The notes under the pieces: model-generated | Told to the model about the DNA's origin: nothing | What the model saw: the letters and a program-made list of their open reading frames with translations, nothing else | Databases searched by the model: none | Shown here: one piece after another, positions 26,429-29,344 of the stretch | Numbering within the stretch: the first letter of the stretch is position 1 | Layout of the letters: each line of letters begins with the position of its first letter | Translations under genes and position numbers: made by a program | DNA from: Candidatus Parcubacteria bacterium | GTDB taxonomy: Bacteria > Patescibacteriota > Minisyncoccia > Phycocordibacterales > PALSA-1337 | Direction of reading: 5' to 3' | Length of the DNA stretch: 56,885 bases | Assembly: GCA_041158765.1 (NCBI GenBank) | Contig: JBEBAU010000021.1 | Location: 1-56,885, forward strand

Positions 26429-29344
26429 ATGCAACCGTACGATCACTCAAAGATTGAGCCAAAATGGCAAAAAAAGTGGGAAAAAGCACAGGCCGGCAAA
26501 GCCAAAACTCCTTCACAGAAGAAAAATGGAGGTGATGAACAGAAGAAATTCTTCGGTTTGATAGAATTTCCATTTCCATCTGGTGACGGTCTCCATGTTG
26601 GACATATTCGCAGCAATACCGCTATGGATATTATTGCTCGTAAGCGACGTCGCGAGGGGTATAACGTGCTCTATCCGATTGGTTGGGATGCTTTTGGTCT
26701 TCCTACAGAAAACTATGCGATCAAGACAGGGCTTCACCCAACAGTTGTAACCAAACGCAATACGGATAATTTCCGCCGTCAGCTCAAATCACTCGGTTTT
26801 TCTTTTGATTGGTCACGTGAAGTAGATACGTCTGATCCCAAATACTATCGATGGACACAGTGGATTTTCCTTCAGCTTTTGAAAAAAGGCCTTGCATACA
26901 AACAAAAGATGTTCATCAATTGGTGCCCGAAGGATCTTATTGGCCTTGCTAATGAAGAGGTAATTGATGGCAAGTGTGAGCGTTGCGGTACGGCAGTAGA
27001 GAAGCGTGAAAAAGAGCAGTGGATGCTTGCTATTACCAAGTATGCGGATCGTCTTGATCGTGATCTTGATGATGTGAATTTCCTTGAAAAAATAAAAATC
27101 CAGCAAAGAAATTGGATTGGTAAGAGCGAGGGCGCAGAAATTACTTTCAAAATCACAGCGGGTGACAAAAAATCAGATAGTAATGTGAGTACAGCCGAAA
27201 GCGTCACTGTTTTCACAACTCGACCTGATACGCTCTTCGGTGTGACATATATTGTGCTTGCACCTGAAAATAAGCTTGTTGCTTCACTTCTTTCACATAC
27301 AAAAAACGCAGATGAAATCAAAAAGTATATTGCTGAAGCAAAAATAAAGTCTGAAATTCAACGCACGGATGCGGGGGCAGAGAAGACCGGTGTTGAGCTT
27401 CGTGGAATTACCGCAACAAACCCAGCAAATGGGGAGCAGGTTCCTGTCTGGATTGCTGATTATGTCCTCGCCGACTACGGAACAGGTGCAGTCATGGCCG
27501 TGCCAGCACACGATAGTCGTGATTTTGCTTTTGCAAAAAAGTACAGATTACCAATACGCCAAGTTATTGCGCCGTATTTTGAAAATACCACTGATCTTAT
27601 TCCAAAAAAGGATTTGCCTATTTCAAAACGAGCTATTGTACACGCAATTGTGAAGCATCCTAGTCAAGATAAGTATCTTTTTATTTCATGGAAGGATCAT
27701 GCGTGGAATTCACTCATCACTGGAGGTATTGAAAATAATGAGACCCTCGCTGAAGCCGGAAAGCGTGAAATTCTCGAAGAAACTGGATATAAAAATGCCC
27801 GTTTCATTGATACTTCTGGAAGTTCTTGGGAGATTCACTCGTATTTTTATGCTGAGCATAAGAATGAAAATCGCTACATGGTTGCTCGAGGTGCATTCTT
27901 TCAACTTGAAAATGAAGAGTGTGTCGAAATAACTGAGGATGAAAAAAAGAAGCATGATATTGTATGGCTCGATGCAATAAAAGCACGTGATTTCCTCACT
28001 CATATCAATCAAAAGTACATTTGGGATATCATTCAAAAAGAGTCTGCGTATGAGGGAGACGGCAAGCTTATTAATTCTGGCAAATTTACCGGTCGTTCAT
28101 CTCAAGAGATATTGAAAGAGATTACAGAATTTGCTGGAGGAAAATGGGTTGAAAAATTCAAACTTCGTGATTGGATATTTTCACGACAGAGATATTGGGG
28201 TGAACCAATACCAGTTATTCATTGTGAGAAGTGCGGCACTGTCCCTGTTCCAGAGAAGAACCTTCCCGTGAAGCTTCCGAAGGTGAAGAATTATAAGCCA
28301 ACAGAGAATGGCGAATCGCCGCTGGCTGCAATAACAAAGTGGGTTAATGTAAAATGCCCAACATGTCGTGGCAAGGCTCGCCGAGAGACGGATACAATGC
28401 CAAATTGGGCTGGTTCTTCTTGGTATTATCTTCGCTATGCTGATCCAAAGAACAAGAAGGCTATTGCTTCACCTGAAGCTCTCAAATATTGGACTCCGGT
28501 AGATTGGTATAACGGTGGTATGGAGCATACGACGCTTCACCTCCTATATTCTCGTTTCTGGCACAAATTCCTCTTTGATATTGGTGTTGTTCCTACAAAA
28601 GAACCGTATGTGAAGCGAACCTCACATGGGCTTATTCTCGCAGCCGGTGGAGAAAAGATGTCAAAATCAAAAGGTAATGTGATAAATCCAGACGCTACGG
28701 TCACAACAGTTGGTGCAGATAGTCTACGTCTCTACGAAATGTTCATGGGGCCTTTTGACCAACATATTGCTTGGGATGAAAACGGCATTGTGGGTACTCG
28801 ACGTTTCATTGAGCGTGTTTGGCGTCTCCAGGAAAAGCTTGCAACAGCGACAATTATTGCGACCGATACCACTGCAGCTGGAACAAAAGACACACTTATT
28901 CACAAAACCATCAAAAAAGTCTCTGAGGATATCGAAGAGATGCGTTTCAACACTGCCATTAGCACCATGATGATTGCAGTGAATGAACTTGAAAAAGAAA
29001 CAGCGGTCTCTATTTCACATTATGAAAATTTATTGAAATTACTCGCTCCATTTGCACCTCATGTAACTGAAGAGATTTGGCAAACAACACTCAAGCACAA
29101 AACATCTATCCACGACGAAGCATGGCCAAGTTATGATCCGACAAAAATCGCAGACACTATTTCAACTATCATTGTTCAAGTAAATGGCAAAATGCGTGCA
29201 TCATTTGAAACAAGTGCCACCGCAACCGAAAATGAGATACAAGAACAAGCACTCAAGCTTCCAGAAACCATCAAGTGGATTGGCGAAAAACCGGTGAAGA
29301 AAATCATCGTCGTAAAAGGAAAAGTAGTTAATATTGTTGTATGA
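26429..29344 (+). CDS. leuS: leucine--tRNA ligase with an inserted Nudix-like domain
   Basis: HVGH (HIGH), [8 protein letters not shown], CP1 editing motifs ([28 protein letters not shown]), and [16 protein letters not shown]. Residues about 381-544 are an extra segment containing [23 protein letters not shown]. Confidence 0.95.
   Translation: [971 protein letters not shown]

Follow-up and report, generated by a model that had tools for sequence, protein, structure and literature searches.

A Nudix hydrolase domain nested in the CP1 editing domain of Patescibacteria leucyl-tRNA synthetase

Introduction

Aminoacyl-tRNA synthetases (aaRSs) are the cellular source of diadenosine tetraphosphate (Ap4A), and in the eukaryotic axis formed by lysyl-tRNA synthetase (LysRS), Ap4A and HINT/Nudix (NUDT2), Ap4A made by the synthetase is cleared by a Nudix enzyme. 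Nudix enzymes cleave the pyrophosphate bonds of nucleoside diphosphates linked to a moiety X, hydrolysis of aminoacyl-adenylates is chemically atypical for them. That aaRSs acquire additional catalytic domains is regarded as a mainly eukaryotic phenomenon. Here we describe a bacterial leucyl-tRNA synthetase (LeuRS) that carries a Nudix hydrolase domain inside its editing domain CP1. Its gene, leuS, lies on contig JBEBAU010000021.1 (assembly GCA_041158765.1) of a Candidatus Parcubacteria bacterium; the whole analysed stretch, positions 1 to 56,885 of the forward strand, will be referred to as the window. The work started from an original prediction, made from the sequence alone, that the LeuRS encoded here contains a Nudix domain.

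Results

A Nudix-fold domain in an otherwise canonical LeuRS

Profile, motif and model all identify residues 381-544 of the window LeuRS as a true domain of the Nudix fold whose catalytic box is intact. The 164-amino-acid (aa) segment, taken alone, scored above the cutoff of the Pfam NUDIX family PF00293 (33.5 vs. 21.1 bits, E 4.9e-8), and its Nudix box, found at 27722-27790 where the original prediction had placed it, matched the consensus Gx5Ex7REUxEExGU at every defined position. The AlphaFold2 (AF2) model of the insert, built from an alignment of 32 homologous segments, was a confident alpha/beta/alpha domain (predicted local distance difference test score, pLDDT, 94; predicted template modelling score, pTM, 0.88). 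A Foldseek search with this model retrieved 512 PDB chains (E<=0.001); every one of the 50 top-scoring chains listed was a Nudix enzyme, with probability 1.0. The top match was the Enterococcus faecalis protein 2AZW (template modelling (TM) scores 0.71/0.78), and among solved Nudix enzymes the TM-scores reached 0.71/0.81; other leading matches were the Aquifex Ap4A hydrolase 3I7U, NudI/YfaO, Chlamydia CT771, RppH and NudB. The identification of the segment as a Nudix domain, which had been the core of the original prediction, is thus upheld.

The host protein is a full bacterial LeuRS in which all synthetic and editing motifs are present. It scored 967.6 bits with TIGR00396 (NCBIfam leuS_bact; cutoff 548.4), and its Pfam matches cover the class I core and the domains for LeuRS editing and anticodon binding. 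The HVGH, CP1 and KMSKS motifs were all found at the positions named earlier, in agreement with the description of the enzyme as otherwise canonical, and a further LeuRS motif named there was located at aa 580-591. The full-length AF2 model (pLDDT 81.8) had target-normalised TM-scores of 0.82-0.84 with the Thermus thermophilus (Tth) and Escherichia coli LeuRS. One element is missing: in the alignment to Tth LeuRS, Tth residues ~590-637, i.e. the leucine-specific domain that precedes KMSKS, have no counterpart. This domain is missing in all members of an alignment of 73 LeuRS homologues, on which the conservation figures given below are also based, and only a few residues stand in its place (window 28640-28670, aa ~738-747). 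The leucine-specific domain is present in E. coli and Thermus LeuRS, it is not universal, and membership in TIGR00396 does not require it.

The insertion site lies within CP1

The insert had been predicted to follow immediately after CP1. This needs correction: the Nudix domain is nested inside CP1, because deletion of aa 383-537 in silico made the match to the editing domain profile PF13603 contiguous over positions 1-183 of 185. In the intact protein PF13603 matched aa 227-386 (profile positions 1-146 of 185, 208.6 bits), the profile is interrupted by the Nudix domain at about position 146, and ~30 aa of CP1 come after the insert. Insertion after CP1 is ruled out by this test. The insertion point is ~20 residues past the editing aspartate D365. 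A phmmer alignment paired residues 1-381 of the query with Tth 1-363 and residues 538-749 with Tth 374-590; ~155 aa stand in place of a ~10-residue Thermus loop, a net insertion of ~146 aa. The linkers that flank the Nudix domain are short and confidently modelled (pLDDT 79-88).

We considered whether the arrangement could be an artefact or a selfish element, i.e. whether it results from chimeric assembly or is an intein or a mobile element that inserted recently. Its a priori oddity is the sole argument in favour of this explanation, the probability of which we regard as negligible. The same junctions recur in more than 100 independent assemblies from four data sources, and this rules out an assembly chimera, one of the outcomes that the original prediction had named as fatal to it. 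The coding frame of the insert is open (3 and 21 stops occur in the two alternative frames), and its composition is continuous with that of the gene (GC content at third codon positions 0.31, compared with 0.36 in the rest of leuS). No intein splice residues (Cys/Ser/Thr, His-Asn) were found at the insert junctions, where on the N-side QVIA is followed by PYFE; the junction residues and the Nudix (not Hint) fold rule out an intein or mobile element. Moreover, the position of the insert has been kept through divergence to ~38% identity.

Distribution among relatives

To survey LeuRS orthologues, the full-length protein was searched against a collection of 5.8 billion proteins, and the 120 closest LeuRS were taken (54-100% identity; sources JGI, NCBI, ENA and Logan). 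PF00293 was present in all 120, and those with a name were Patescibacteria, Taylorbacteria or Paceibacter. The Nudix domain occupied this same CP1 loop (site 3) in 116 of the 120, with a strict box in 105 of the 116, and the remaining four LeuRS had two tandem Nudix copies at another loop. In ~10 of the 116 site-3 copies the box was altered, with replacement of E by Q and of R by A, S, Q or K, and one copy was without EExG.

Relatives of the insert are encoded by at least 494 GTDB species genomes (one genome per species), by record title mostly Patescibacteria; the titles include Taylor-, Nomura-, Moran-, Falkow-, Komeili-, Buchanan-, Uhr- and Adlerbacteria and Paceibacterota. Among the best 80 of these matches, ~73 to 75 lay within long LeuRS open reading frames. 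An exhaustive profile search of 1.84 billion cluster representatives (50% identity) gave 175 clusters at E<=1e-30, and the best 148 of these comprised 114 LeuRS-linked, 29 short free-standing and 5 other clusters. A word-indexed search of the 5.8-billion-protein database with the insert alone had returned 10 free-standing Nudix proteins and made the insert look like a singleton, an impression overturned by the full-length and profile searches. The Nudix-LeuRS arrangement is old and lineage-wide in Patescibacteria LeuRS, and it is under purifying selection. That we are dealing with a real, conserved and LeuRS-partnered Nudix domain is, in our opinion, practically certain.

The combination of an aaRS with a Nudix domain had been called unfamiliar. 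This was right in so far as we found no dedicated NCBIfam model for LeuRS-Nudix, unlike for isoleucyl-tRNA synthetase (IleRS) + GNAT, saw no Nudix domain in solved LeuRS structures, and found no publication on a Nudix domain in LeuRS in the full-text literature, subscription literature being outside the scope of the search. It was not right in the sense of a one-off, and the LeuRS + NUDIX architecture is already displayed by automated Pfam annotation in public databases. Both parts belong to known families and the sequences are already public; it is their combination for which no curated model, solved structure or publication was found.

Conservation of the two active sites

Mean pairwise identity among the 73 aligned homologues was 38% in the insert, 65% in CP1 and 82-85% in the catalytic core. 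In the synthetase, H56, G58 and H59 of the HVGH signature and the editing residues T263, T264, R265, T268, H361, D362, R364 and D365 were invariant; the TTRPDT and HDxRD (here HDSRD) editing motifs were unchanged throughout the alignment. In the insert R401, G432, G433, E450, E451, G453, K478, N481, E505 and W513 were invariant, and E438, R446, E447, R482 and H509 were kept in at least 90% of the sequences (R482 in 70 and H509 in 66 of the 73). Both the LeuRS editing and the Nudix activities appear to be retained, a prediction made because the Nudix-box and the editing residues are invariant or nearly so. Past the box, the set K478, N481, R482, E505, H509 and W513 is likewise conserved in the free-standing copies and in those embedded in prolyl-tRNA synthetase (ProRS) that are described below. 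In one sub-clade E438 was replaced by Q together with replacement of R446 by A, S, Q or K, with EExG retained. The two box residues form a Glu-Arg pair in known Nudix structures, and the co-change fits this pairing.

It could be argued that the domain is a non-catalytic module with a nucleotide-sensing, regulatory or structural role, which for example compensates for the missing leucine-specific domain or provides protein-protein contacts. Absence of the leucine-specific domain from the whole clade, the modified box in ~10 of the 116 site-3 copies, one of them without EExG, and the short confident linkers, which suggest rigid docking, are all compatible with such a role. However, even between highly divergent sequences there is little or no variation at the metal-binding residues E447, E450 and E451 or elsewhere in the box, the box is strict in 105 of the 116 copies, and the catalytic residues are kept in the free-standing homologues as well. 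We therefore consider a non-catalytic module very unlikely.

Paralogues, free-standing copies and other hosts

The Nudix-LeuRS pairing looks specific, rather than a random fusion, because paralogues of the domain occur at at least two further LeuRS loops, free-standing genes stand upstream of leuS, and the domain is independently nested in ProRS. The extra paralogues in homologous LeuRS were found at positions corresponding to ~206-216 and ~242-258 of the window LeuRS; they are 34-43% identical to the site-3 copy, and a single protein can carry up to three Nudix copies. Among the free-standing homologues with readable context, five of seven adjoin leuS or lie near it. Three of them (P0002, P0004 and P0008) are directly upstream of leuS and in the same orientation, separated from it by 164, 10 and 189 nt, respectively, and P0005 is one small gene away. 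At locus L089 the stop codon of the Nudix gene (P0003) overlaps the start of leuS (ATGA; GCATGAAA), and this leuS contains no Nudix insert, its loop being of the short canonical form. The domain is fused in some genomes and operonic in others, which is a classic pattern.

ProRS was the only other aaRS host seen for the Nudix subfamily, and there the domain is confined to a small clade. In five archaeal-type ProRS (P0262 and P0279-P0282; locus L087, 2906-4837) the Nudix domain is nested between the anticodon-binding and the C-terminal domains, and in three of the five the first half of the Nudix box is shortened. The nearest insert-free relatives of these enzymes are labelled Nanoarchaeota or Woesearchaeota. 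A further arrangement was represented by two stand-alone proteins of ~280 aa (L005, 3698-4567, and L035, 3624-4469) from two metagenome-assembled genomes labelled Clostridia, in which the C-terminal half of CP1 is combined with a Nudix domain at the same loop. In these half-CP1 proteins the editing Asp is replaced and the Nudix box is intact.

These data bear on the possibility that the domain is a generic house-cleaning pyrophosphatase of nucleoside triphosphates (NTPs) or modified nucleotides, similar to MutT, NudI or NudB, which in a reduced genome would use the essential, constitutively expressed LeuRS as a scaffold for its own expression and stability and would not be coupled mechanistically to aminoacylation. 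NudI, YfaO, NudB and MutT1 are matched about as well as Ap4A hydrolases are, the unrelated domains Ser_hydrolase (PF06821) and HAD (PF13419) occur in other loops of homologous LeuRS, the site-3 loop itself can be occupied by unrelated modules without Pfam match, and sequence change has been much faster in the insert than in the core. Against this stand the free-standing Nudix gene that is operonic and start/stop-overlapping with an insert-free leuS, the repeated capture of one Nudix subfamily at at least three LeuRS sites and in ProRS, and the LeuRS linkage of 114 of the best 148 subfamily representatives, with ProRS as the sole other aaRS host. The operonic overlap, the repeated capture and the LeuRS-linked majority therefore argue for a specific aaRS link, and we regard uncoupled house-cleaning as rather unlikely.

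Several related Patescibacteria LeuRS are 1100-1477 aa long (P0012, P0015, P0036, P0052, P0061, P0096, P0097 and others) and contain extra nested domains: Ser_hydrolase (PF06821/PF00561), HAD phosphatase (PF13419/PF00702) and one or two Nudix paralogues. In window-LeuRS coordinates the insertion sites are at aa ~206-216, ~242-258, ~604 and ~635-650. LeuRS acts as a multi-hydrolase scaffold in these Patescibacteria. On one contig (L084, 276-896, minus strand) a free-standing PF06821 Ser_hydrolase gene, of the family that is nested in other LeuRS, was found ~5 kb from a Nudix-leuS pair; the same contig also encodes a bacterial-type ProRS.

The CP1 site-3 loop is an insertion hot spot. In the leuS of L082 (1774-4506; aa ~383-497) and in P0060 and P0083 this loop contains an unrelated module of ~100-120 aa, located in P0060 and P0083 between HDxRD and SRQRYWG. 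The three modules gave no Nudix signal with all filters off and no Pfam match, thus the idea that they are degenerate Nudix domains was rejected.

Features and gene neighbourhood

The features of leuS and the neighbouring genes are collected in Table 1. The valyl-tRNA synthetase (ValRS) encoded upstream is short and contains neither a Nudix nor any other insert; its Pfam anticodon-binding match breaks off at the end of the protein, at position 106 of the 148 in the profile, so that the usual C-terminal extension seems to be missing. Between valS and leuS lies a gene for a small stand-alone SWIB/MDM2-domain protein (110 bits), a domain unusual for bacteria. Downstream, an EamA-family transporter is encoded by a gene whose start codon overlaps the stop of leuS (ATGA at 29341-29344), an arrangement that suggests translational coupling. 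Farther upstream is the gene of what is, from its domain content, probably a large surface protein. No tRNA genes and no Rfam families at gathering threshold were found in the window (1-56885).

Table 1. Coordinates of leuS, its motifs and domains, and neighbouring genes in the window
Feature	Residues (aa)	Position	Strand	Basis
leuS, bacterial-type LeuRS with nested Nudix domain	971 aa	26429..29344	+	Open reading frame
HVGH (HIGH) class I signature	56-59	26594..26605	+	Motif position
CP1 editing domain, N-terminal part	227-382	27107..27574	+	PF13603
Thr-rich TTRPDT motif of CP1	263-268	27215-27232	+	Motif position
CP1 segment with editing Asp D365	351-365	27479-27523	+	Motif position
Nested Nudix hydrolase domain	381-544 (folded core ~380-537)	27569..28060	+	PF00293, AF2, Foldseek
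Nudix box	432-454	27722..27790	+	Fits Gx5Ex7REUxEExGU at every defined position
Subfamily-specific residues past the box	K478, N481, R482 (HKxxNR motif), E505, H509, W513	27857..27967	+	Conservation
CP1 editing domain, C-terminal part after the insert	538-568	28040..28132	+	PF13603 after in-silico deletion; Tth 374 onward
KMSKS class I signature	743-747	28655..28669	+	Motif position
Anticodon-binding domain	824-933	28898..29227	+	Pfam PF08264
Protein with Laminin_G_3, purple-acid-phosphatase N-terminal and peptidoglycan-binding domains	1233 aa	15384-19085	+	
valS, ValRS	784 aa	22814-25168	+	
SWIB/MDM2-domain protein	82 aa	25585-25833	+	
EamA-family transporter		29341-30252	+	

Discussion

The window encodes the housekeeping LeuRS of a member of the Patescibacteria (also known as the candidate phyla radiation, CPR), in which a complete Nudix pyrophosphohydrolase domain has been captured in a surface loop of CP1. 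We propose that this domain is catalytically active and that its substrate is a nucleotide anhydride which the synthetase produces or binds. Its likeliest substrates would be dinucleoside polyphosphates of the Ap4A type, which are made when ATP attacks the aminoacyl-adenylate, and these products would be cleaved to mononucleotides at their source, in organisms with a minimal nucleotide metabolism. As a whole, this proposal of local dinucleoside-polyphosphate hydrolysis by a LeuRS-nested Nudix domain is the explanation we favour, with a chance that we put slightly below even. For the substrate class, Ap4A-type dinucleoside polyphosphates or related nucleotide anhydrides, our confidence is low to moderate.

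An Ap4A-type substrate is favoured because aaRSs make Ap4A and because there are genetic and physical ties between the Nudix domain and two aaRSs. The sequence and structure neighbours fall into the small Nudix group that acts on dinucleoside polyphosphates, RNA caps and NTPs, and include Ap4A hydrolases (3i7u, CT771 4mpo and the lupin enzyme 1f3y), RppH, NudC, Dcp2, DIPP, the decapping effector AvrM14 and NudI/NudB/MutT; 3i7u, 4mpo and 1f3y are among the best matches, and NudI, NudB and RppH score equally well. Most homologues have a Tyr or Phe 16-18 positions past the Nudix box; an aromatic residue ~17 aa after the box was reportedly noted in ApnA hydrolases by Dunn et al. in 1999. The leuS-adjacent copies, the multiple insertion sites and the ProRS fusion make a LeuRS-linked function more credible, they do not thereby identify the substrate. 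Of the functions suggested in the original prediction (on Ap4A, on adenylates or on RNA or tRNA 5' ends), direct hydrolysis of aminoacyl-adenylates would be chemically atypical for a Nudix enzyme.

It must be noted that several observations weigh against Ap4A hydrolysis at the synthetase. The closest structural match, 2azw, is an uncharacterised Enterococcus Nudix protein, and NTPases of the MutT, NudI and NudB types score about as well as Ap4A hydrolases. None of the NCBIfam Nudix subfamily models was matched at its cutoff: the scores were 30.8 vs. 103 for NudB (NF006961, dihydroneopterin triphosphate diphosphatase), 25.0 vs. 116 for RppH (PRK00714, RNA pyrophosphohydrolase) and 21 vs. 95 for NudI. 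Several free-standing copies do not adjoin leuS, and other LeuRS loops host unrelated hydrolases, namely the alpha/beta Ser_hydrolase and HAD, which could mean that LeuRS is instead a scaffold for housekeeping enzymes in general. Finally, LeuRS is not known to be among the strongest Ap4A producers.

The domain could also act on RNA 5' ends, as a pyrophosphohydrolase or decapping enzyme similar to RppH, NudC or Dcp2, which CP1 would place near the acceptor end of tRNA-Leu, and which would free tRNA or other RNAs of 5'-triphosphates or of NAD or Np4A caps. CP1 binds the 3' end of the tRNA, which is adjacent to the 5' end (PDB 2byt, 4arc). The profile matches to AvrM14, Dcp2, NudC and RppH are consistent with such an activity, and so are the stand-alone half-CP1-Nudix proteins, which have lost the editing Asp and kept the Nudix box. 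On the other hand, the RppH score is far under the cutoff of its model (25 vs. 116), the 5' ends of mature tRNAs are made by RNase P so that there is no evident need for such an enzyme, and the ProRS copy, located between the anticodon-binding and C-terminal domains, is away from the acceptor end. Taken together, we find action on RNA 5' ends unlikely.

Hydrolysis of synthetase-derived nucleotides may be part of a broader phenomenon, in which aaRSs of ultra-small symbionts (CPR and apparently some DPANN archaea) have a dedicated Nudix enzyme as obligate partner, be it in LeuRS loops, in ProRS or as an operonic subunit; this partner would link the breakdown of a signalling or cap nucleotide derived from the synthetase (Ap4A/Np4A, or Np4A- or NAD-capped RNA including tRNA) to aminoacylation or proofreading. 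This generalization is possible, we nevertheless consider it doubtful. If it were true, LeuRS with its HAD and alpha/beta-hydrolase insertions would amount to a platform of several nucleotide-processing enzymes, and would parallel in bacteria the eukaryotic aaRSs that accrete domains.

Whatever the substrate, throughout a large uncultured radiation the proofreading domain of an essential bacterial synthetase houses a second enzyme, and the link between the two has independent support from the operon arrangement and the parallel ProRS fusion. The system may offer a handle on how organisms of minimal metabolism treat by-products of aaRSs such as Ap4A, or nucleotide-capped RNAs. The tolerance of CP1 to domain insertion bears on engineering and on the boron-based LeuRS inhibitors that target CP1. 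The analysis also flags a conserved Nudix subfamily without assigned substrate.

It is instructive to compare the window LeuRS with the known systems. Its fold, the HIGH and KMSKS signatures, CP1 with the Thr-rich motif and the Asp, the anticodon-binding domain and the C-terminal domain are like those of other bacterial LeuRS (TIGR00396; T. thermophilus 1H3N/2BYT, E. coli 4AQ7/4ARC). It differs from the T. thermophilus and E. coli enzymes in having a Nudix domain of ~155 aa in the CP1 loop and in lacking the leucine-specific domain. The inserted domain resembles the small single-domain Nudix enzymes (2AZW, 3I7U, CT771, NudI, RppH and NudB) in the box, the alpha/beta/alpha sandwich and size, with TM-scores of 0.65-0.81 and 15-21% identity. 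In contrast to these it is embedded in another enzyme, and it has a signature of its own consisting of R401, W421/K422/W426, HKxxNR, E505, H509 and W513. Among aaRSs with an additional enzyme domain a precedent is IleRS + GNAT (NCBIfam NF040702). Unlike in IleRS-GNAT and in the LysRS/NUDT2 axis, however, the Nudix domain described here is covalently nested in the editing domain of LeuRS, and the arrangement is bacterial, lineage-wide and multi-copy.

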